Source: a virus. From it: 64,000 nucleotides of DNA. The translations under genes were made by a program, and so were the position numbers. Location: the IMG/VR virus record IMGVR_UViG_3300008117_000079; one strand, given 5' to 3'. A model generated the notes under the pieces. That model was given only the letters and a program-made list of their open reading frames with translations. It was not told the DNA's origin and made no database searches. This document shows positions 22,090 to 54,868 of the stretch, piece by piece. Each line of letters opens with the position of its first letter. Position 1 is the first letter of the stretch.

Positions 22090-22815
22090 TTATAAGCCAA
22101 ATCTACTTTTTGTCATATTATAATTATAATTTATTTGTGGTTGTGTTAAAGCATAATTAAACACCTCAAAACGACTCAAATACATTTTAGAATAAGAACC
22201 ATCACCCATACTCGTAGGACAATTACTGGCAATGGCGTAATATAAATTTGTACCATTATTATATGGGGCTGCTCTATTGAATGTTAGGGTGCCTGCCGAT
22301 GAACCATTAACATATGCAGTTAATGTTGTGCCATTATAGACCATACCTATATAATACCAATTATTTAAAGGGGTTGCTATTGATGAAGTTATAGAACTAA
22401 TAGCACTACCATCCCACATTCCAAATTTTAAAGTACCACTAACCATTTCAATTTGAGAGTCAAACCAAGCTGTATTTGGTGTTGGTGATGTACCTTGTTC
22501 ACTAAGAATAACACCATTATCCATTGGATAAATCCATAAAAATATAGATGTAACTTCTGATTTTGTTGGTGATGTTCCATTAAAAAAACTATCTAATGCA
22601 GTATTAGTTATTAAGTATTCATTAACACCATCAAAATATATTGACCCTGACGTAAATGCCGAATAGGTTGGTGTATTACTTAACGTTCCATCTGAAACAT
22701 CAAATAAATCGGTAACTACAGAACCGGTTGTTGGATATGAATTTTGATTTGTAAAATCATAACACAAAATTGGTTTAGCTGGTATACTAGATAATATCGC
22801 TTTATATTTATTCAT
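22090..22815 (-). CDS. LamG_3 (concanavalin A-like lectin) domain protein, paralog 1 of 6
   Basis: C-terminal ...MYLSRFEVFNYALTQPQINYNYNMTKSRFGL matches the Laminin_G_3 end signature (IxxxRIYNRALSxxEI) and the conserved terminal xKxRFG[LF]. Divergent copy of the array at 24298-28201. Confidence 0.55.
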   Translation of the reverse strand: MNKYKAILSSIPAKPILCYDFTNQNSYPTTGSVVTDLFDVSDGTLSNTPTYSAFTSGSIYFDGVNEYLITNTALDSFFNGTSPTKSEVTSIFLWIYPMDNGVILSEQGTSPTPNTAWFDSQIEMVSGTLKFGMWDGSAISSITSSIATPLNNWYYIGMVYNGTTLTAYVNGSSAGTLTFNRAAPYNNGTNLYYAIASNCPTSMGDGSYSKMYLSRFEVFNYALTQPQINYNYNMTKSRFGL

Positions 22816-22819
22816 AGTC

Positions 22820-24199
22820 TTACCTTACTATCCAATACTCCACTCTTGTCCCTTCAGACCATTCAGCATAAATTATATTAACAGTACTTGTTTGATAAGT
22901 TGTACTACCCAATAATACCCACCCAACTGGAACTGTGGGCGCTGTACCACTATTATGGTATATTTTTTGGGTAACCCCTAATTTAGCATTTGTTAAAGTA
23001 TCTGTTAAATTAGAAGATATCGGTGAAGAGTAAGTACCGAATACTGTGTTACCGGTAAAATGTATTGTTGCTGTAGTACTAGATAATGTGGTTATTGTTG
23101 CTGGTTGCCAAGTTCCATTACCACTAGCATCAGAGGTTAATACATATCCACTTGTTGCTCCCGATGTTACTTGTAATGAGGTCGTTTTTGTTTTACCACT
23201 AACCTCTAATCTTTCTGTTGGGGTAGAGGTTCCAAACCCACTTAAATCACCTATAACATTTACAGTACCATCTTCAGATCTAAAATGAGCAGATGCTTTA
23301 CCATCAACACCACCCCTATCGGCTGAATAAAATTTGAACCCATTTGTAATACCACTAGTAGGTGAGGTACCATTAGGTATGTAAATACAATTTGAATCCG
23401 TAATGTCTTGTTGTAAATCACCTAATAAAAAATTACTAGTACACGTCAATGACGCCTTTTTTAAAATACTAGCACCTGGATTTCCGTCTGTCAACCAAAA
23501 ATTAAATTTACTTCTAGAAATAGACGAAATGATTTCTGTTTCTGTTTGTATTCTACCAGTATCATAACTAACACCAGCACTATAGTCTGTCCTAAATAAA
23601 ATTGAGGCCTTTCTTGTTTGGTTTTGGTTTTGTGAAAATAAAATATGATCAAGTTCGGAACCGTACCCATTACCTGCAAGAGATATGGGGTAATTTCCGT
23701 GAGTTAGACTACCTAAAGTTAATTTACCACTGCTGGAACTTAAACCATTTTCACTTAAAATAATTGCTGGGTTACCAAACTGATTGACTGATAGGTTTGT
23801 ACCATATTGGCCATTTTTTCTCATAGTTAGACCAAAATTAGAGTCACCATATTGTAAAGTATAATTGTCATCCCAAGTGGTGCTCACTGTTGAATTTGTG
23901 ACTGAAAATAAATTACCACTATCTACACTATTTCTAATTCTAAAAGTTGTGTCGGTAAGCGTTGTCCCAGTAGCTATTACTTGTAATATACCATTATTAT
24001 AAGTCAATTGACTACTTCCACTTAGTGATGAAGATGTATCAAATAAAGCAATTTGCCCTGTAAATCCACTTCCTGAAACACCTGAAGGTGGTAGATTATA
24101 ATAAGTTGTTGCTGATATACTTGTTGTGGTTAATGTACCATCAACTAGTCCGTTTCCCTTTGATACGAACCCATTTTTAATTATAAATTCATTTGCCAT
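22820..24199 (-). CDS. tail fibre-like protein with GYVLTSDxSGN..W motif
   Basis: 459 aa, Ser/Thr/Gly-rich. Contains LQVTSGATSGYVLTSDASGNGTWQP, shared with 28203..30323. Confidence 0.5.
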   Translation of the reverse strand: MANEFIIKNGFVSKGNGLVDGTLTTTSISATTYYNLPPSGVSGSGFTGQIALFDTSSSLSGSSQLTYNNGILQVIATGTTLTDTTFRIRNSVDSGNLFSVTNSTVSTTWDDNYTLQYGDSNFGLTMRKNGQYGTNLSVNQFGNPAIILSENGLSSSSGKLTLGSLTHGNYPISLAGNGYGSELDHILFSQNQNQTRKASILFRTDYSAGVSYDTGRIQTETEIISSISRSKFNFWLTDGNPGASILKKASLTCTSNFLLGDLQQDITDSNCIYIPNGTSPTSGITNGFKFYSADRGGVDGKASAHFRSEDGTVNVIGDLSGFGTSTPTERLEVSGKTKTTSLQVTSGATSGYVLTSDASGNGTWQPATITTLSSTTATIHFTGNTVFGTYSSPISSNLTDTLTNAKLGVTQKIYHNSGTAPTVPVGWVLLGSTTYQTSTVNIIYAEWSEGTRVEYWIVR

Positions 24200-24297
24200 T
24201 TAATCTTTTCCCTTTCCAAGATTTATAACAATAAATATATGTGTTAATTAAATCTGGATCTTAATGTATTATAATTTTGTAAAATTTATAAATACAA

Positions 24298-25029
24298 TCA
24301 AAACCCAAATCTTGACTTTGTTGAGTTATAGTTTTGTAATATTTCAGACGATGTAAGAACCCTATTATAAACAATACCCTGCGCAATACTACCAACCATA
24401 TATTGTCCAGCAAAGTTGGCTCCAGCAAACTGAATTGGTGCGCTATGGTCCGAATGTAATGTTGTTGTAGTTAATACTGGTATACCATTCACATAGATAA
24501 CAACATTATTATTTGGTGGTCCGGGTAAAACAACCCCAATGGTCTCACCAAATGTCATAGCAACGTGAGTCCAAGTGTTTGTACCTAAATTGATTCCAGT
24601 ACTTCTTATTCCCGCATTTATATTACAACTAGGACAAGTTGCTAAGTAATTACCCCAATCAAATGCACATAATACATTATCAATTAAAAATAAACCCCAA
24701 GCGTTTTGTTTTGTAATAACACCTCTAAAACTACTATTACCACTTGTTGCTTTAATCCAAGCACTGATTGTCCCTAAAGTTATTTGTAATTGTGGTGTGT
24801 TTCCACAATTAATATATTGGTTAGACCCATTAAAAGTAAACATACCACCGACAGATGTACTAAATATTGGTGTATTAACCAAAGAACCATTATTTATGTT
24901 TCCAGAAATATCTTTTAATGTTGACCCACCCTGTAAACTATAATAAGAATTCGGTGAACTTGGGTCTATATAAATTAATAAACCATCTTCAACAATATTA
25001 GGCCCTCGCCAATTACCTACCGTACTCAT
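24298..25029 (-). CDS. LamG_3 domain protein, paralog 2 of 6
   Basis: ...IVYNRVLTSSEILQNYNSTKSRFGF end signature; 243 aa. 4-nt ATGA overlap with upstream paralog. Confidence 0.65.
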   Translation of the reverse strand: MSTVGNWRGPNIVEDGLLIYIDPSSPNSYYSLQGGSTLKDISGNINNGSLVNTPIFSTSVGGMFTFNGSNQYINCGNTPQLQITLGTISAWIKATSGNSSFRGVITKQNAWGLFLIDNVLCAFDWGNYLATCPSCNINAGIRSTGINLGTNTWTHVAMTFGETIGVVLPGPPNNNVVIYVNGIPVLTTTTLHSDHSAPIQFAGANFAGQYMVGSIAQGIVYNRVLTSSEILQNYNSTKSRFGF

Positions 25030-25745
25030 AACCCAAACCTACGTTTTAATGTATTATAATTTTGTAAAACTTCTGATGATGATAAGGTTTTTGTGTAAAC
25101 CATAAAATTATTTATTCTTGCAGGTAAAAACCAAGTCTTCCCAGGAGTAGAATATGTACCCAAATTAAAATGGGTATTTGTGTTAAAATAACAATTCAAA
25201 CTAGTTGATGTACCTTCTAAAACCCCATTTACATAAAGTGACATTGTACTTGTTAAAATATCATAAGTACAAGTTATATTATACCAATTATTGATAGTCC
25301 AATTATTAGTTGTGGAATATATAATACCAAATGGGTTAAATGTTTGAAAACTAATCCTACCTGAAGCATTACCTAGTAAATGTAAATAATTATCAACACC
25401 ATTAAGTAATGTGTTTTGGGCTTCCATAACCATATAATAATTTGTATTTGCTGGCGTTATATTAATTGTTGGACTAAACCAAATACTAAAAGAATAGTTA
25501 CCAAATGTTTGGTTTGTTGTTATTTGTGGTAATCCTATGTAATCATTAGATCCGTCTAGTAATAAACAACCCTTATTTGTTTCAGAAAATGTTACACCAT
25601 TAATTAATGTTCCACTATTTTTTTGTTGTACACTAATATCTGACCAAGAAGTACTGCCCGAAATATAAGATTTAGGATTTGAGGTATCCAAATAATAAAT
25701 TAAATTTTCTAAAATAATATTTATACCACCCTCTGTTGTACTCAT
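25026..25745 (-). CDS. LamG_3 domain protein, paralog 3 of 6
   Basis: N-terminal LIYYLDTSNPKSY...WSD.S...N.GTLINGVTF....GCLLLDGSNDY and C-terminal MVYTKTLSSSEVLQNYNTLKRRFGL. Confidence 0.65.
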   Translation of the reverse strand: MSTTEGGINIILENLIYYLDTSNPKSYISGSTSWSDISVQQKNSGTLINGVTFSETNKGCLLLDGSNDYIGLPQITTNQTFGNYSFSIWFSPTINITPANTNYYMVMEAQNTLLNGVDNYLHLLGNASGRISFQTFNPFGIIYSTTNNWTINNWYNITCTYDILTSTMSLYVNGVLEGTSTSLNCYFNTNTHFNLGTYSTPGKTWFLPARINNFMVYTKTLSSSEVLQNYNTLKRRFGL

Positions 25746-26035
25746 TATCCATTACCATTAAGTATAGTTTGATTAAATGAAACTGAATATGGATTAACCC
25801 ATTCAGGAGTCTCCAAAATCGTTAAAATTTCTTCATAGGTATAAGGACCTTCTTTTGTTGTTAAAGAATCAACAGATGATGGAATATCACCATCCCACTT
25901 AACAAATGTTTTTGTTTCATCTACTGAGTTCCTGACTGTTTCTTCAGATGTTTCTAGTACCTGAGAAAAATCAATTTGATTTAACTCCGATACATTGAAT
26001 ATCATAAATTGTCTGTTGTTATAAACTGCTCCCAT
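25745..26035 (-). CDS. hypothetical small protein inserted in LamG array
   Basis: 96-aa acidic ORF, start overlaps stop of next gene; unrelated to flanking paralogs. Confidence 0.35.
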   Translation of the reverse strand: MGAVYNNRQFMIFNVSELNQIDFSQVLETSEETVRNSVDETKTFVKWDGDIPSSVDSLTTKEGPYTYEEILTILETPEWVNPYSVSFNQTILNGNG

Positions 26036-26040
26036 AATTT

Positions 26041-26790
26041 TTATAAATTAAATCTACCTTTATGTGCGTTAAAATTCTGTAATACTTCTGATTCAGATAA
26101 CGCTCTATTATATATTCTAGTTATTGCTATTTTTCCTTTATAATTTATAAGATTATTACCAGTACCTCTACCTAGTGTTAATGAACCACCTAAATAAGTA
26201 ATCCAAGAAGGGTTAGATGATATTGTTGCACCTGTTACTGTTGTAACCAAAGTGCCATTAACGTATATTTTAACTGTGGATAAATCTCTAGTTACTGTTG
26301 CCAAATTCCATTTATTTGCTGGTGCTACGTAATTTGGTGAACCTATAAAATTAAATGAACCTGGTGATGGATAAGGATTACCATTGTTTGATCTAAACCA
26401 TAGATACCCTATTGCACCATAATCATAAATATAATTTAGTTGGAATTGACTATCTTCAACTTGACCGGCTCTCATTAAGTGACCCGAACCATCAAATATT
26501 GCGTTTGTTCCACGACCAGTTGAGTAAAACCAAGATTCTAAAGTATGACCACTAGCAACACTTAAAGTTGGATTATATGTAATATTTGCGTAATCATTTA
26601 CACCATCAAATAAAATACTACCACCATTAGAAGTATCATAGGTCGGTCCATTTATTAAAGTAAAATTATTTCTATTACCTGTTAAATCAGACCATAACGT
26701 ACCGCTACTCGGATATGAATAAAGATTAGCACCATCCAAACATACTACTAAACCATTTGTTACCACATTAGGTGCTACATTTCCACTCAT
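26041..26790 (-). CDS. LamG_3 domain protein, paralog 4 of 6
   Basis: NGLVVCLDGANLYSYPSSGTLWSDLTGNRNNFTLINGPTYD...ILFDGVNDY ... IYNRALSESEVLQNFNAHKGRFNL. Confidence 0.65.
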   Translation of the reverse strand: MSGNVAPNVVTNGLVVCLDGANLYSYPSSGTLWSDLTGNRNNFTLINGPTYDTSNGGSILFDGVNDYANITYNPTLSVASGHTLESWFYSTGRGTNAIFDGSGHLMRAGQVEDSQFQLNYIYDYGAIGYLWFRSNNGNPYPSPGSFNFIGSPNYVAPANKWNLATVTRDLSTVKIYVNGTLVTTVTGATISSNPSWITYLGGSLTLGRGTGNNLINYKGKIAITRIYNRALSESEVLQNFNAHKGRFNL

Positions 26791-27488
26791 TGTCCAAATC
26801 TTGTTTTTAATGTGTTATAGTTTTGTAAAACCTCATTAGCTAATAAACCTCTATTGTATATTTTAACGTTTGCTATTTCACAATTACCATTTGTTGTTTG
26901 TCTTCTAGCTATTTGTAGTGTTCCGGTTGTATTTGTAATATTTCCGTCGGCAAAAACACTACTTACAAATACACCATTAATGTAAAATTTTAAATCATTA
27001 CCATCATAAGTAACACAGTAGTGGTTCCAAACATCTATACATTGTGAATTATTTAAAAGTGTAAATACAACTTTTTGACCTGTACCAGCCCAACGTTCAG
27101 AAGCAATTGCAATTACATTTGGGCTATCCCTATAAAACCACAAATTGTACCCATTTCTTGGCGCTCCATATTCACGATTAAGTAATCCGTGAAAAGTACT
27201 ATTTGCTGTGATTATTTTTGCAAATAAACTTAAAGTATAAGGACTTCTATTTAAAAATTGTAAATCTGACAATATAGGGAATGTACCTTCATCATTTAAA
27301 CCATCAAATAAAATACTCCCTTTATTTTTTGAATCAAATGTTGGACCATTAACTAATGTACAGTCATTGTTTCTACCACTTAAATCAGACCATACAGTTG
27401 AACCTGAAACATATGAATTAATGTTAGCAGCATCCAAACACAGAACTAAACCATTTGTTACTATTTTTGGTGAAAAATTATAACTCAT
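26787..27488 (-). CDS. LamG_3 domain protein, paralog 5 of 6
   Basis: NGLVLCLDAANINSYVSGSTVWSDLSGRNNDCTLVNGPTFD...ILFDGLND ... IYNRGLLANEVLQNYNTLKTRFGQ. ATGA overlap with neighbours. Confidence 0.65.
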   Translation of the reverse strand: MSYNFSPKIVTNGLVLCLDAANINSYVSGSTVWSDLSGRNNDCTLVNGPTFDSKNKGSILFDGLNDEGTFPILSDLQFLNRSPYTLSLFAKIITANSTFHGLLNREYGAPRNGYNLWFYRDSPNVIAIASERWAGTGQKVVFTLLNNSQCIDVWNHYCVTYDGNDLKFYINGVFVSSVFADGNITNTTGTLQIARRQTTNGNCEIANVKIYNRGLLANEVLQNYNTLKTRFGQ

Positions 27489-28201
27489 AATCCGAATCTT
27501 GTTTTTAAAGTGTTATAATTTTGTTTTAATTCACTTAAACTAAGGTCCCTATTATAGATATTAACAGTTGCAATGTTACAGTTATTATAATTTATAAACC
27601 CAGGGAACCCTATTAAAAAATTAGATGTTATATTGATTATATTACCTAATGATGTGGTTTGACTTAATAATTCACCATTTAAATACATTTTAAGTGTTGA
27701 CCCATCATAAGTTGATGAAATATATACCCAAGAACCTTGTATAGAACTACGACTTACATTTGCCCCTGTACCACTTGAACCAGCGGTTGAGAATCTCTCT
27801 GTGTAAATATAAACCTGATCTGATGGTTGACCTTCTATTGTGTATAATAAATTATAACCATTTCTAACACCACTAATAAAGTCTTCTCTTCTTATCCAAG
27901 AAGGGTATGTTGATTTAAAATTCACAATTTTAGTAAAAACAGAAAGTGTATACGGACTATTATTTAAAAAAAGAATGGAACTATTCTTACCACAATTTAC
28001 ATAATCGTTTAACCCATCAAACACTATACTACCCATATTATTGGGATTAAAAGTTGGTCCATTAATTAAGGTACCATCGTTTTTATTTTTTGATATGTCA
28101 TTCCATGTTGTACTACCACTAATAAATGATTTAGTATTGGCAGCATCTAAATATAATACTAACCCATCCGTAACAATTTTTGGTGAAAAATTAAAACTCA
28201 T
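27485..28201 (-). CDS. LamG_3 domain protein, paralog 6 of 6
   Basis: DGLVLYLDAANTKSFISGSTTWNDISKNKNDGTLINGPTFN...IVFDGLNDY ... IYNRDLSLSELKQNYNTLKTRFGL. Confidence 0.65.
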   Translation of the reverse strand: MSFNFSPKIVTDGLVLYLDAANTKSFISGSTTWNDISKNKNDGTLINGPTFNPNNMGSIVFDGLNDYVNCGKNSSILFLNNSPYTLSVFTKIVNFKSTYPSWIRREDFISGVRNGYNLLYTIEGQPSDQVYIYTERFSTAGSSGTGANVSRSSIQGSWVYISSTYDGSTLKMYLNGELLSQTTSLGNIINITSNFLIGFPGFINYNNCNIATVNIYNRDLSLSELKQNYNTLKTRFGL

Positions 28202-38836: not shown

Positions 38837-40882
38837 ATGGCAATAGAATTCATTGATGACAACGACAAGAACAAGAAAAAAAGTGATAGTGGAACTCCGG
38901 TTCTAGACAACTTTAGTAAAGACTTAAATAAGTTAGCTCAAGAAGGTAAATTAGACCCTGTAATAGGTAGAGAAGATGAAATTATTAGAATTGCACAAAT
39001 TTTATCTAGAAGAAAGAAAAACAACCCTATTATTATCGGTGAACCAGGTTGTGGTAAAACAGCAATTGTAGAAGGGTTGGCAATGATGATTCATAGTGGT
39101 GAATGTCCTAAAAATCTTTCAGAGAAAAGAATTGTTTCCCTTGAGATGAATTCAATTGTTGCCGGTACAAAATATCGTGGACAATTTGAGGAAAGAATGA
39201 AAGTAATAATTGAGGAACTTCAAAGTAATCCAAACATTATTCTTTTTATTGATGAGATTCATACAATGGTTGGTGCTGGTAATAGTTCTGGTTCACTTGA
39301 TGCCTCAAACATCTTTAAACCGGCCCTTTCTAGGGGTGAAATCCAATGTATTGGTGCTACAACCCTTGATGAATATAGAAAGCATTTTGAGAAGGATGGA
39401 GCTCTTGAGAGAAGATTCCAGAAAGTAATTGTAGAACCATCAACAAAGGCTGAAACTTTTCAAATTTTAAAAAATAGTAAAGAAAAGTATGAAGAACATC
39501 ACAAGGTAACATATTCAGACGAATCACTTCTTTTATGTGTAGAACTTGCCGATAGATATATTACAGATCGTGAGTTTCCGGATAAAGCTTTTGATATTAT
39601 TGATGAGGTTGGGTCAAGAATGCAAATTGATATTAAACTTCCTGAAAGTATTGAAAATCTAAAACAAGAACTTCTTGAAATTAAAAAGGAGAAGTCTGAC
39701 GTTATAAAAAAACAGAAATACGAAATGGCTGCTGAGTTAAGGGACCGGGAAAAATCAGTAATGTCATCACTTGATGCCGAAAGATTAAAATTTGAGGAAG
39801 AACTTAGAAATAGTAAAAGAGTAATTCCGGAAGATTTAATTTATGAGGTTGTTTCTAAAATGACTAAAATCCCGGTAAGCAAAATTAATGTTGACGAGAA
39901 AAACTCTCTTGTTAATTTAGAGAACGCACTAAATAGCTATGTAATTGGTCAGGCTGAAGCGGTAACAAAAATATCAAAATCCATTAGAAGAAATAGAATT
40001 GGAATTAAGGACCCAAATAGACCAATTGGTTCATTTATCTTCCTTGGGTCAACCGGTGTTGGTAAAACATATCTTGCAAAGAAACTAGCAAAAGAAATTT
40101 TTGGTAGTGAAGATAGTTTGATTCGTGTTGATATGTCTGAATATCAGGAAAAACATACTATATCAAGGCTTATCGGTTCTCCTCCAGGATATGTTGGTCA
40201 CGAAGAGGGTGGACAGCTTACAGAACAGGTTAAAAATAAACCATACTCTGTTATCTTATTTGATGAGATTGAAAAGGCAAATAAAGATATCTTCTCAACA
40301 CTTCTTCAAATGCTTGATGACGGGCATATGACCGACGGACTTGGAAGAAAAATTAACTTCAAAAATTGTTTAATTATTATGACATCAAATATTGGTGTTA
40401 GAAAATTACAGGATTTTGGAACTGGAGTTGGGTTTAAATCAAATAGTAGTGAAGCAGTAAGAGAAGAAGAAAAAAGAGATATCCTCAAAAAAGAATTAAG
40501 TAAGTTCTTCGCTCCAGAATTCCTAAATAGAATTGATGACGTTATTGTCTTTAACTCGCTTAAAAAAGAGCACGTTGACCGGATTGTTAAAATTGAAATT
40601 GAGAAGTTAGTTAACAGAATTGAGTCAATGAAATATAAAATTACATACGATGAGTCAGTTGTTGAATTGATATCTGAGGTTGGGTTTGATGAACAATTTG
40701 GTGCAAGACCAATTAAAAGGGCAATCCAGGATAAAATTGAAGACCTTATCTCTGAGAAAATATTACTAAATGAAGTTCTAGAAGATGTTGATTATAAATT
40801 GACAGTTGTAGATAAGGAAATTAAGATTGATGTTCTTATTGAGAATAAACCTAAAAGGGGTAGAAAGAAAAAGGAGGGTTAA
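38837..40882 (+). CDS. ClpC/ClpA-family AAA+ chaperone ATPase (two nucleotide-binding domains, no Clp_N domain)
   Basis: D1 Walker [30 protein letters not shown] Walker B. Internal UVR-like linker motif [15 protein letters not shown] as in ClpC. D2 Walker [25 protein letters not shown]. Starts directly at D1, so the N-terminal double Clp_N repeat is absent. Confidence 0.85.
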
Positions 40883-42810: not shown

Positions 42811-43201
42811 GGGGATGTATTGGATTTGACAGGCGTTGGTTGAATAAAAGGAGCATGTCGGGACTGAATTAATCTCGTTAAAAACTGATTCACTTTTTAA
42901 ATGGCAATGTGCTAAACAAAATGGAAGCTGTTGGGTTAATCCGCACTTCTGAGGTTGCTGTAGCGTAATCGCAACAAAAACCGGGGGCCGGCAGACATAT
43001 AGCCTAGCAACAGAAGTCGTAGTTTTATAGAGCAACCTGGTCGGCTCTCTAAATCCGGATTAGAAACCATTGGTTGTTGATTTACGATGGAAAAGAACAA
43101 ATCAACTATTTTGGGGTATTAGAAAATACCAACCTAAGCATGTAGTGGTCTTTTAAACAAGACGAGCTGGACCGGGGAGTCGGAGCCCCGCATCTCCACC
43201 A
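42811..43201 (+). ncRNA. ssrA: tmRNA (SsrA-like transfer-messenger RNA), CCA encoded
   Basis: 5' end GGGGATGTATTGGATTTGACAGGCG parallels the canonical tmRNA 5' end GGGGCTGATTCTGGATTCGACGGG. 3' end ...CGGGGAGTCGGAGCCCCGCATCTCCACCA gives a T-arm plus 7-bp acceptor pairing with the 5' GGGGATG and an encoded CCA. An internal ORF AAT GTG ... GTT GCT GTA GCG TAA (NVLNKMEAVGLIRTSEVAVA*) has its stop inside a hairpin (GTTGC TGTAGCGTAATC GCAAC), as helix 5 does in tmRNAs. ~390 nt length typical. Confidence 0.6.
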
Positions 43202-43235: not shown

Positions 43236-44316
43236 TGTCTTAAAATTATATATTATTGCTGTACGATTTCTATATTTTTGTGTAAACAAAAAAAGGGATC
43301 AGTTTCCTGTCCCTACTAATTTTTTTTGTCTTATAAGATTAAACCTAAAAAGAACGTTGAGATTACACGTTTTATTGAGAACCTTTAGAGTCATTATTTA
43401 TTCTACTCCTATCCACTTCCTTTTGAGAAGTATTTCTCAGTGACGGTCACTTAGGGGAACCACTCCTTGAGATTTGGACTACTCTCACCTTACTTGACTC
43501 TTTCCGAGGATGCCTCCCCAGTTCGTCCTTGCGGGACTAAAGGTTTTTCGGATAATTACACTTAGACTTGGGATCCTTGTGTGCAATGAACGGCTCATTA
43601 CTATGTAGTCACCTTTCATCCAAACCTGACGGACACTTTTCCTTTCTGATTAAATTAATTTCATAATTTTTTCTTAGGTTTTTGTGTCGTGGATTATGAA
43701 AGTAGTGGTCCGCCACCAGAGCCAGCTCATCTTTTGAACGAGCCGATACTCAACTACTCTCTGAAATGTCCCCATCTCAATATTTTAAGATTACTTCGTG
43801 ACTTATGCCTTGGTAGGCAAGGGTCAAGGATAATGTCAGCACCACCTGTTTGTTATCATACCTTTCGGTTTTAAGTATCCTCTGATATTGGGACACGCAA
43901 TAATAAAATTGGATAATCTTATTTTTTGCAATATCCCTACGAGTTATTCCTATTGGTGTTCCCACCTCAACCGGACGACCCACATCGCCCAATCATCTAA
44001 CCACTTTCCCTACAGCGTTGCCCTCGGTACTAAAGGTTAAACGGTATCCCGCTTGTATACTTAAGTTCGGTTACCCAAACCGCAGATCAGTTACACTACT
44101 GACCCACTTTATCCTGGTTTCCCAGTTTATTTATTGACTATATACGGCCAAATATCTTTATCAGTTTGTTACTCAGAATCAACCGCAAGGATTTCATCAT
44201 CAAACATTCTGAATGGATATTCTAATTTTTCAAAGAACGATTTCGGACGTTTCCGAATTTGTTTTACAAAGTTACGACACTTTTTTCAGTTTGTCAAGTA
44301 CTTTATGAACTTTTTT

Positions 44317-48789: not shown

Positions 48790-48969
48790 ATATTTTAGAA
48801 AATATTTCTTCAGCATTCTACTCCCAGCCCCGAGGAATCGTATCTTACTTAGCCCGTCTCACCGCTGTATGGGTACTGAAGTTAATATTTTCTTTTTTTT
48901 CTACCTATTAAAAGTATAAACAAAACAAATGATACAAACAATAACATATTCATCTTTTAATTGTATTTG

Positions 48970-49069
48970 TAGACAAGAAAGGATTTGAACCTATACGACA
49001 ACTTTTACATTGTCTCGGTACAATCTTAGTTAGATCTACCTTAGCGTCTGCCGATTTCGCCACTTGCCT
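48970..49069 (-). tRNA. tRNA-like gene, ~100 nt, type II-like D-arm, anticodon arm not resolvable
   Basis: Acceptor AGGCAAG/CTTGTCT, D-arm TGGCGAAATCGGCAGACGC, T-arm ATAGG/TTCAAAT/CCTTT. The internal 48 nt (TAAGGTAGATCTAACTAAGATTGTACC + hairpin GACAA-TGTAAAAG-TTGTC) do not fold into a canonical 5-bp/7-nt anticodon arm. Confidence 0.35.
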
Positions 49070-49331
49070 TTGTTAACACCCTAATTTATTCAGCTTACAG
49101 GTGCTCCGGTTGTCCCCACCAAAAAGGTAGGTTAGAAATAGTTTCTTTCGTCCTCAACCCAGGTCGGGCAAACTTTCAGTCCACCTCTGTTGAGATGTGC
49201 GTTTCCACTGTATCTAATACAACTTACTTTCCCAGTCGTTCTCCCTATACGACAATGTACGTTCCCCTACGGATATCACTCCGTTTCTCATTATGTGGGG
49301 CACACTAGGGGGTGATGAACCCTACCACGTG

Positions 49332-49435
49332 TAGTCAGGACAGGATTTGAACCTATAAGAGACCCATTGTTAACCCTCATTTAATGTCTCAACCCCAGGG
49401 TGTTGAGGTGCGTCTACCAATTCCGCCACCTGACT
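49332..49435 (-). tRNA. tRNA-like gene, ~104 nt, type II-like D-arm, 6-bp stem with 8-nt loop (ACCCTGGG) at anticodon position
   Basis: Acceptor AGTCAGG/CCTGACT, D-arm TGGCGGAATTGGTAGACGC (Leu/Ser/Tyr-like), T-arm ATAGG/TTCAAAT/CCTGT. The middle has CTCAAC-ACCCTGGG-GTTGAG followed by a long hairpin GAGAC...(22 nt)...GTCTC. Paralogous in layout to 48970..49069. Confidence 0.35.
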
Positions 49436-49581
49436 ATTTTTTACTGTTCACGTAGAACACACAATCTTTTTTTCGTTTGCTCTTAAAGACTATCTCTTTA
49501 TCTTCCTTAACTTGCCACCATATTCCTATCCAAGCATGACATTTCTTTTCTATTGTATAATTCATAACTTTTAATTTTTTG

Positions 49582-49655
49582 TAGTCCCGACAGGATTCAA
49601 ACCTGTGACCTTCGCCTTAGAAGGGCGTTGCTCTATTCAGCTGAGCTACGGGACC
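49582..49655 (-). tRNA. tRNA-Arg (anticodon TCT)
   Basis: GGTCCCG-TA-GCTC/AGCTGAATA/GAGC-A-ACGCC/CTTCTAA/GGCGA-AGGTC-ACAGG/TTTGAAT/CCTGT-CGGGACT-A; only mismatch A27:A43. Confidence 0.7.
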
Positions 49656-51418: not shown

Positions 51419-51927
51419 ATTTTAAGGGTGAACACGGGCCTAGCGTGCCGTCTTTTAGGAAAGGCCCTCCCACCTATCCACCCTTTTTGTTGTAGCAACG
51501 CCTTGGAATCGCACCAAGTTAAACCGGCTTATGAGACCGGTGAGATCCTCTACCTCCCGCCTGCTATATCTGTGATACAGTAGTTGACAACCACACTCGT
51601 TTCACCATCTTTTGTCAACAGGTCTATGAACTTAACGAGTTCACCTTTTCTTACCACCACAATATTTTAAAAAGTTGTGATTTATATGTATCAGCATCAT
51701 TACTCCATTATTAAATGCTTCACGGCGGATTAGACCGTGCTAGTCGGAGCAAGCTAGTTCAACACATACTACCTAAAGTTTTCCCCCTCGCTTTAGTGTA
51801 ATAAATCACAATGTTTTCAAAGAACTTTTTTCCCTTTATCTGGGGGTAGGATACCAATTTCTAAACTTCCTACCCCCATCGTTTGTCTTACAAAGATATG
51901 TCAAATTTTTTAATCTACCAAATCTTT

Positions 51928-52633: not shown

Positions 52634-52707
52634 TACCCCTAGCAGGACTTGAACCTGCAAAATTCAGATCCTAAATCTGACGCGTATACCTATTCCGCCA
52701 TAGGGGC
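52634..52707 (-). tRNA. tRNA with anticodon TAG in a class I (short variable arm) body
   Basis: GCCCCTA-TG-GCGG/AATAGGTATA/CGC-G-TCAGA/TTTAGGA/TCTGA-ATTTT-GCAGG/TTCAAGT/CCTGC-TAGGGGT-A. UAG anticodon would read Leu CUA/CUG but lacks the long variable arm of Leu tRNAs. Confidence 0.5.
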
Positions 52708-53884: not shown

Positions 53885-53955
53885 TTATTTTTAGCGCGTG
53901 GTGTAGGAATTGAACCCACCCAGTGAGGTTTTGGAGACCTACCCGACACCTTGTC
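53885..53955 (-). tRNA. tRNA-Trp-like (anticodon CCA), compact D-arm
   Basis: Acceptor GCGTGGT/ACCACGC, loop CTCCAAA with anticodon CCA, T-arm GTGGG/TTCAATT/CCTAC. D-arm reduced (GACA-AGGTG-TGTC); 71 nt. Confidence 0.45.
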
Positions 53956-54160
53956 TGTACCACGCAAATGCCCGACCTAGCTCGGGACCGACATCGGATA
54001 TTTAAATAGTTCTGGTCAACCACTCGCCACCCACCAATCTCTTGTATCAAACTTTTTGTAGTCCAAACGATTCCTTTATTGAACTTAATCATTTTGGTAA
54101 TATCTCCTACGACTCATTCTCAACTCACTTGCCTAAGCCTTGTCCGTTGTGAACTATTTG

Positions 54161-54631: not shown

Positions 54632-54794
54632 AAGTTTAGGAAATCAGAAGATGGTTCTGTGGACATCTGATTTTACGATTAGCTTTACTATGACAGTTAA
54701 AACTCCCACATAACTACGAACTACTGACACGTTAACGTTATGTACTTCCCTAATCAACCTATTGTACACCCTATAGGACTTGAACCTATGACCT

Positions 54795-54868
54795 GTTGTA
54801 TCGACCGGTTACGATCCGATTCTCCCCATATTAAAAGTATGGTGCTTTCCCGATTAAGCTACGAGGGG
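54795..54868 (-). tRNA. tRNA-Lys-like (anticodon TTT), acceptor stem disrupted; possible pseudo-tRNA
   Basis: D-arm GCTT/AATCGGGA/AAGC, anticodon arm CCATA/CTTTTAA/TATGG and T-arm ATCGG/ATCGTAA/CCGGT are intact, but the 5' strand CCCCTCG pairs only 3 bp with the 3' strand CGATACA. A second orphan T-arm (ATAGG/TTCAAGT/CCTAT) follows at ~54765-54790. Confidence 0.3.

Follow-up and report, generated by a model that had tools for sequence, protein, structure and literature searches.

Two anticodon-less tRNA-Leu-like genes of a tailed phage belong to a large, apparently undescribed family of shell-and-insert elements

Introduction

What can a gene be for that has the body of a leucine transfer RNA (tRNA) and no anticodon arm? 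The question is raised by two neighboring genes, here termed A and B, in a 64-kb stretch of viral DNA (IMG/VR record IMGVR_UViG_3300008117_000079; the window, below, means this whole stretch). The window comes from a tailed phage, as it encodes a major head protein, a portal, and a large terminase; none of 50,697 deposited phages is related to it at the nucleotide level. Its minus strand holds an array of 15 tRNAs called by ARAGORN at default settings (48.5-55.5 kb), with a GOLLD RNA and a transfer-messenger RNA (tmRNA) nearby. A and B lie inside the array and are not called, and the same array encodes canonical Leu(UAA) and Leu(UAG) tRNAs. Here, we describe both genes as members of a phage family in which a tRNA-Leu shell encloses a private insert, together with a second conserved RNA that separates them, and weigh what such RNAs may do.

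Two tRNA-like genes without an anticodon arm

The original prediction, made from the sequence alone, placed two tRNA-like genes of ∼100 nucleotides (nt) at positions 48970-49435. Both are real; they lie on the minus strand (as do all the parts listed here), measure 104 and 100 nt, have the type II (Leu) D-arms ascribed to them, and share one layout. Gene A (49332-49435) opens with the acceptor 5′ strand AGUCAGG (49435-49429), which forms seven Watson-Crick pairs with CCUGACU (49339-49333). Between the two strands lie the D-arm (GCGGAAUUGGUAGACGC; 49426-49410), a 52-nt insert (49409-49358), U48 (49357), and the T-arm (AUAGG-UUCAAAU-CCUGU; 49356-49340), and the discriminator A73 follows at 49332. 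Gene B (48970-49069) has the acceptor strands AGGCAAG (49069-49063) and CUUGUCU (48977-48971), the D-arm GCGAAAUCGGCAGACGC (49060-49044), a 48-nt insert (49043-48996), U48 (48995), a T-arm with the stem AUAGG/CCUUU (48994-48978), and A73 at 48970. The acceptor stems had been called perfect, which is true of A; in B the seven pairs include G3.U70. Both of the T-arms that had been called normal are present, with one U.G pair in the stem of A and one U.U mismatch in that of B. Each gene therefore has the 7-base-pair (bp) acceptor stem, G18G19 D-arm, and GUUCRANUC-type T-loop of an elongator tRNA body.

The middles are what set these genes apart, and neither forms the 5-bp stem and 7-nt loop of an anticodon arm. 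In A, the insert consists of a 6-bp CUCAAC/GUUGAG hairpin with an 8-nt loop (ACCCUGGG) lacking U33, a 9-nt linker (ACAUUAAAU), and a second hairpin. The minimum-free-energy (MFE) fold is a cloverleaf shell with two hairpins (-29.5 kcal/mol) and pairs GAGG with UCUC. The 6-bp stem had been foreseen; the GAGAC/GUCUC hairpin proposed next to it cannot co-form, because both use the GAG of GUUGAG. The insert also holds a vestigial Leu(UAA) loop, AUUAAAU, and a possible pseudoknot (ACCCU/AGGGU). In B, a long arm (GGUAGAUC/GAUU(G)UACC; 8 bp and a bulge) closes a 7-nt loop, UAACUAA, with A at position 33. The AGAUCU palindrome and the GACAA/UUGUC hairpin described earlier are both present, the hairpin occupying the variable-arm position 3′ of the long arm, and the MFE z-score of B is -2.4. 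The Rfam tRNA model (RF00005; gathering threshold 29 bits) scores A at 38.3 bits, in local search only and with a 24-nt loop insert, and gives no hit to B at E ≤ 10. Neither the tmRNA option of ARAGORN nor Rfam RF00023 calls a tmRNA on A or B.

A phage family of shells with private inserts

Viral contigs were scanned for a Leu D-arm followed, after a gap of 46-72 nt, by a T-loop. This pattern was matched in at least 118 contigs, and many of the matches have a near-identical shell (AGUCAGGUGGCGGAAUUGGUAGACGC...ACAGGUUCGAAUCCUGUCCUGACUA) around wholly different middles. The collection comprises 116 distinct long elements, 90 of which have a middle unrelated to any other; 41 different acceptor sequences, always paired, occur among 90 family representatives. 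The middles differ between members and range from ∼20 to ∼150 nt, and elements with the AGUCAGG shell are 71 to 200 nt long, of which default ARAGORN calls about 19 of 109. A covariance model, R1, was built from 44 other elements, leaving out A, B, and their orthologs. Under this model, A reaches 75.9 bits (E = 1e-19) and B reaches 63.8 bits (E = 4e-16), the two best matches in the 64 kb, whereas the canonical tRNA-Leu genes of the window reach 44.1 and 41.5 bits; chance is therefore excluded. A and B are thus members of a phage family of more than 100 distinct tRNA-Leu shell/insert elements. A full-text literature search found no account of such elements, and the family, large as it is, is apparently undescribed.

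The family is specific to phages. A search of 185,579 species genomes for the shell 24-mer (T-arm and acceptor) found it in just 18 contigs; every one of these belongs to a metagenome-assembled genome, many of them freshwater Bacteroidota, and none to a cultured isolate. Given this distribution, the shell was rejected as a copy of a host tRNA or as a phage attachment site (attP). In INPHARED, the two shell halves occur together in one metagenomic record only. Cyanophage matches, seen as an unannotated partial match, look like the tRNA-Leu-derived attachment sites of cyanopodoviruses. An Rfam 15 search (gathering and E-value thresholds) of the window, 16 related loci, and 13 large-insert loci yielded tRNA and nothing else: riboswitches, ribozymes, CRISPR repeats, T-boxes, RNase P, and group I introns were all absent.

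Conservation of the shell and leucine identity

Shell statistics were taken from 106 elements defined by acceptor and T-arm alone. The discriminator A73 is found in 94 of them, U(-1) in 83, and a C after the discriminator (C74) in nearly all; position 15 is A with U48 in 87 elements and G with C48 in three. A canonical tRNA lies within 500 nt of 44 elements. At position -1, in the leader, bacterial RNase P prefers a U.

For leucylation, the leucyl-tRNA synthetase (LeuRS) of Escherichia coli requires A73, A15-U48, G18G19, A20a, and D/T-loop contacts (PMC9976931). This identity set includes neither the anticodon nor the variable arm, and a tRNA-Leu without both arms is still charged (Larkin et al., 2002, as cited in PMC9976931). 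A and B each carry the full bacterial set. Because the shell keeps every LeuRS identity element, the shell RNAs are probably leucylated, that is, A and B are probably leucine-accepting, and by this comparison the shell appears to be exactly the part of tRNA-Leu that is needed for processing and leucylation.

Selection on and exchange of the inserts

Orthologs of A occur in two viral contigs, L275 and L279 (the L numbers denote viral contigs compared with the window), in different flanking DNA. Between A and its L275 ortholog, one of 52 insert positions has changed, versus eight of 52 shell positions (Fisher p ∼0.03), and the shell changes include the compensatory replacement of G10-C25 by U10-A25. 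An insert class of 115 nt, carried in AGUCAGG shells, shows 83-91% identity in at least nine contigs with six compensatory pairs, and smaller insert clusters show whole-helix swaps, pseudoknot-like crossings, and covariation. These patterns indicate that the inserts are under selection and are not junk. A search for a shared insert motif gave weak enrichment only (AAAGUU, AGAUUGA, and a ...CAU before the T-stem).

The inserts also move. Contig L170 is 94.6% identical to the window in the adjacent RNA, yet has an unrelated element and insert upstream; similarly, the same 43-amino-acid (aa) open reading frame (ORF) precedes shells with different inserts in the window and in L275. With unrelated inserts in close relatives beside the same neighbors, whole elements look to have been exchanged at the shells, which would serve as recombination points.

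Two other readings of the inserts were rejected. None matched non-shell sequence in 2.4 Mb of loci, as captured flanking DNA should, the likeness of A's hairpin described below being the sole remainder. As for antisense guides, the inserts of A and B reach at most 11-12 nt of complementarity elsewhere in the 64 kb, the most common value among shuffled controls, and matches of 8-9 nt to the neighboring RNA are at chance level.

The 115-nt insert class is carried by L130 (614-725), L157, L176, L177, L202, L224, L229, L249, L259, and L266, usually directly downstream of the conserved 190-262-nt RNA described below, and some copies have a ∼33-nt D-loop insertion.

The 43-aa ORF (MNYTIEKKCHAWIGIWWQVKEDKEIVFKSKRKKDCVFYVNSKK; 49434-49565, minus strand) lies between tRNA-Arg and A, and 39 of its 43 residues are kept in L275. 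The first two nucleotides of A lie within its UAG stop codon, which an RNase P cut at the 5′ end of A would therefore remove; the phage that carries this ORF also encodes a tmRNA.

Another viral contig, L110 (IMGVR_UViG_3300008261_001363), is 99.96-100% identical to the window and lacks 49372-49586 and 51566-51626. The first gap removes the 3′ end of tRNA-Arg as well as the first 64 nt of A; it may be a deletion that arose naturally between two similar T-arms, or else an artifact of assembly.

A second conserved RNA between A and B

The interval between the two genes, on which the original prediction was silent, is itself occupied by a conserved structured non-coding RNA (49070-49331, minus strand), 262 nt long here and 190-230 nt elsewhere. 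It begins with CACG directly after the discriminator of A and ends ∼5 nt before B. Its core (AUGAGAAACGGAGUGAU) is accompanied by a pseudoknot, in which a CCC loop pairs to GGG, and by a 3′ hairpin, (A/G)CACCU...GGGUGU. A core 17-mer was found in 21 viral contigs and at least 119 contigs from metagenomes; a few of these matches are due to chance, and many of the contigs are freshwater. Covariation was assessed in an alignment of 20 sequences with 26 hand-drawn pairs in six helices, including the loop-to-downstream pseudoknot. The pairs are 96.5% paired and 12 have changed on both sides, versus 2-4 in shifted controls, and none of 500 shuffles reaches the observed value.

This RNA belongs to no Rfam 15 family; C/D-box small nucleolar RNA models gave chance-level matches at E > 2 only, and the T-box, RNase P, and group I models gave none. 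It contains no ORF of at least 30 aa on the minus strand and is carried by no deposited phage.

The adjacency to tRNA-type ends is tight. In at least 46 of 58 distinct instances (∼80%), the conserved RNA starts 0-3 nt past a tRNA-type 3′ end, with a CCUGACU shell as the upstream element in 29 of them. On the 3′ side of the RNA, at least 16 instances have an AGUCAGG shell within a few bases; several others have another tRNA there, and six have a T-run. The 262-nt RNA is, then, a second conserved RNA that travels with the family, and it is likewise unannotated.

The insert of A resembles the consensus 3′-terminal hairpin of this RNA (49070-49115): CCUCAACACCCUG..UAAAUGAGGGU compared with CCACAACACCUG..UAAAUUAGGGU. 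The alignment score of 32 compares with 15.5 ± 3.2 for shuffles and was reached by six of 5000, and among the 116 inserts that of A is the best match. A binding partner common to the two RNAs, or a capture in the past, could account for the likeness.

Proposed role

Among the readings first offered for these genes, that of a tRNA-derived, non-decoding RNA is the one favored by the evidence. With moderate confidence, we regard A and B as non-decoding, tRNA-processed, probably leucine-accepting scaffold RNAs that also set the ends of a neighboring RNA; their processing, their charging, and any cellular role are what we infer from sequence. A, the 262-nt RNA, and B would be co-transcribed with the tRNA array as a long precursor. 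The block between the flanking tRNAs around A and B shows no excess of promoter-like or terminator-like sites. The shell would be seen by the ordinary tRNA machinery: RNase P would cut at U(-1)/A(+1), and the end after A73 would be made by RNase Z or an exonuclease and then extended by the CCA-adding enzyme. Processing of this type would give the RNA, with its embedded insert, defined ends and tRNA-like stability, and LeuRS would probably charge the product with leucine. The insert would be the specific, selected part, likely a protein- or ligand-binding fold held on a tRNA body. In the fashion of mascRNA and the TMER units, the processing sites of the two shells would, in addition, release the 262-nt RNA with exact 5′ and 3′ ends.

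A more far-reaching version, which we consider improbable, is that these elements form a widespread class of phage RNA in which an anticodon-less, leucine-accepting body is joined to an aptamer-like domain, the charged chimera acting outside decoding and AGUCAGG/CCUGACU serving as the handle for a sequence-specific partner. Possibilities would be entry into the ribosome with EF-Tu as a miniature tmRNA, or donation of the leucyl group for N-terminal tagging that feeds the Clp-type unfoldase encoded by the phage at 38837-40882.

Several observations weigh against the scaffold reading. No partner protein co-occurs with the family: clustering of 2465 ORFs from 154 family loci returned only ordinary phage genes (helicase, TerL, ParB-methylase, DnaB, DUF458) without a fixed position. 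The acceptor AGUCAGG/CCUGACU is near-invariant across many phages, and RNase P, RNase Z, and LeuRS read none of those bases; this constancy is a hint that some partner reads the sequence or that recombination is frequent. The conserved RNA also has ordinary tRNAs beside it, so that the dummy tRNAs are not required for its processing. The conservation of the insert of A hangs on a single diverged ortholog, and a recent transfer of the insert could still lie behind it. Three pattern scans for orthologs of B gave a sole copy, in L110, and since that contig is near-identical to the window, the insert of B falls outside any comparative evidence. Finally, A may be dispensable, as L110 is without its 5′ half, unless that gap is an assembly artifact.

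Alternative explanations

The alternative that survives best, though we judge it unlikely, is that the elements are decoys or sponges. Their tRNA body would titrate a host factor that reads the acceptor, T-arm, or elbow (candidates are a defense nuclease, a tRNA 3′-end-modifying toxin, or even LeuRS), or the insert would mimic the RNA target of a defense system. The restriction of the family to phages and the conservation of the acceptor sequence beyond the needs of processing enzymes agree with such a role. So does the presence of some members in very large tRNA arrays, a trait linked to tRNA-targeting defense, although fewer than half of the elements (the 44 noted above) are near a canonical tRNA. 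Insert turnover is quick enough to resemble an arms race, as in the comparison of the window with L170, but between orthologs the inserts are conserved and not diversifying, and they match no Rfam family, the CRISPR repeat families included. The original suggestion of a decoy for anticodon nucleases fares poorly, since no anticodon loop is presented to them. Moreover, the shell copies no sequenced host tRNA, and no defense or anti-defense gene, nor any partner, is linked to the family loci.

It is less probable still that A and B are working Leu tRNAs with an anticodon loop interrupted by the insert, which would be spliced or repaired out, or tolerated as an expanded loop for frameshift or quadruplet decoding. 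A standard fold after removal of an intron had been named as the outcome that would overturn the original prediction, and for A one exists in part: the intron mode of ARAGORN folds it as tRNA-Leu(UAA), with the stem CCUC/GAGG, the loop AUUAAAU, and 19 nt cut at 31/32. This cut lies inside a helix and at no known bacterial intron site, and the Leu-type fold lies 8.5 kcal/mol above the MFE. The same mode returns for B only an implausible Arg(UCU) with the insert at 39/40, and the 7-nt loop of B has A33. A and B have neither a bulge-helix-bulge motif nor an Intron_gpI or other Rfam match, and no RtcB, splicing endonuclease, or RNA ligase is found among 40 ORFs of at least 150 aa. Two observations in relatives do agree with an interrupted tRNA: L027, L113, and L085 share a covarying 5-bp stem and a conserved 13-nt loop ending in the canonical Leu loop CUCAAAA, and L170 has a near-canonical Leu(UAA) with a 6-nt loop at the same place. 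Across 105 family members, however, the isotypes and insert positions that intron-tolerant ARAGORN assigns are scattered, and Leu is called about as often as chance would have it. Decoding through an expanded or quadruplet loop, as originally proposed, is likewise not supported, given the missing U33 of A, the scattered isotypes, middles of up to ∼150 nt that are mostly unrelated to one another, and the canonical Leu(UAA) and Leu(UAG) genes already in the array.

Least probable, and in our view very unlikely, is decay from a duplicated tRNA-Leu whose anticodon region was wrecked by insertion or tandem recombination and which is kept by co-transcription with the array: the vestigial Leu(UAA) loop in A, the recombining shells (different inserts beside the same 43-aa ORF in the window and L275, and beside the same adjacent RNA in the window and L170), the missing half of A in L110, and the resemblance of its insert to the adjacent hairpin, as if captured, would all fit, but decay would hit shell and middle alike, whereas U48, A15, A73, and U(-1) are kept in over 100 elements, the inserts are conserved and covarying, and A and B outscore real tRNA-Leu genes on the family model.

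Comparison with known RNAs

Judged by origin and by identity set, A and B derive from tRNA-Leu. In function, they resemble most nearly the mascRNA/TMER processing units, as well as tmRNA and YrlA as a "tRNA module plus second module," and in design the synthetic tRNA scaffold. The D-arm is identical to that of E. coli tRNA-Leu, a bacterial type II tRNA, and A73, A15-U48, G18G19, A20a, and the T-loop are kept; the minimal tRNA-Leu without anticodon and variable arms provides a precedent for leucylation without an anticodon arm (Larkin et al., 2002, as cited in PMC9976931). Unlike tRNA-Leu, A and B have no anticodon arm or usable anticodon and hold a private insert of 48-52 nt instead, and the A1-U72 acceptor AGUCAGG is found in no isolate genome.

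With tmRNA, the two genes share acceptor and T domains without an anticodon arm, joined to pseudoknotted RNA, aminoacylated (here, probably), and placed outside normal decoding; B alone also has G3.U70 with A73, the alanine identity pair. They differ in length (100-104 nt, versus ∼360 nt) and in having a full D-arm and no tag reading frame, and the window has a separate tmRNA.

The units of mascRNA/MALAT1, MEN-beta, and the TMERs of murine gammaherpesvirus 68 are non-decoding tRNA-like folds in which cleavage by RNase P and RNase Z sets the ends of an adjacent non-coding RNA; they come from eukaryotes or a herpesvirus, and conservation of their anticodon arms is poor. Unlike the family of A and B, and to our knowledge, these units are not aminoacylated, have no conserved structured insert, and keep no synthetase identity set.

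The Y RNA YrlA is a bacterial and phage non-coding RNA in which a tRNA-mimicking module is joined to a second functional module (PMC4201824). Its ends lie in the Ro-binding stem and its acceptor-like stem is closed by a loop, whereas in A and B the two ends pair as an ordinary acceptor stem. In the window, no gene for Ro/TROVE was noticed. The stable RNAs of phage T4 termed species 1 and 2 (RNA C and RNA D) are small, with no assigned role, and are encoded in a phage tRNA cluster and matured with the tRNAs; they have no sequence relationship to A or B. In the synthetic tRNA scaffold of Ponchon and Dardel, from 2007, a foreign RNA that replaces the anticodon loop reportedly gains tRNA processing and stability. 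That scaffold is a laboratory design, for which no natural counterpart was found in the literature search.

Other features of the window

The array holds further unusual tRNA-like genes, all on the minus strand. A third over-long one (54765-54868; 104 nt) scores 37.6 bits with the Rfam tRNA model and goes uncalled by ARAGORN. Its loop, CUUUUAA, is of the canonical Lys type, an extra region of ∼35 nt lies 5′ of the T-arm, and the acceptor stem pairs poorly. The tRNA-Leu(UAG) (52634-52707) is only 74 nt long; its D-arm is of the Leu type, but where the long arm would be there is a variable loop of 5 nt. A 71-nt cloverleaf-like element (53895-53965), reported by neither ARAGORN nor Rfam, has a 7-bp acceptor stem and the loop CUCCAAA (anticodon CCA, Trp). 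Between B and tRNA-Leu(UAA) lies a small conserved RNA (48809-48885) without an Rfam match, whose closing stem, CUUCAGUA/UGCUGAAG, shows compensatory changes in L105 and L027.

Outside the array, a ClpA/ClpB-like double-AAA+ protein (38837-40882, plus strand) is encoded close to the tmRNA (42811-43201, plus strand; 86.7 bits with Rfam and uncalled by ARAGORN) and the GOLLD RNA (43354-43761, minus strand). Seven consecutive ORFs occupy 22090-28201 on the minus strand; six are paralogs of ∼240 aa with a Laminin_G_3 (ConA-like lectin) domain, which may be diversified receptor-binding proteins, and the seventh (22820-24199; 459 aa) has no Pfam hit.

Implications

Because tRNA finders skip or under-score genes of this kind, more than 100 distinct phage RNAs and their companion RNA have gone unannotated. 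For annotation, shell elements should be kept out of the tally of decoding tRNAs and suppressors when tRNA repertoire or recoding is inferred for a phage. The family also raises the questions of what the inserts bind, whether the shells are charged with leucine in infected cells, and why one acceptor sequence is kept across unrelated phages. If the scaffold model is true, the tRNA body would be a natural phage carrier that gives processing, stability, and perhaps aminoacylation to arbitrary structured RNAs. It would then represent a natural counterpart of the laboratory tRNA scaffold, and a parallel, in the viruses of bacteria, to mascRNA and the TMERs.

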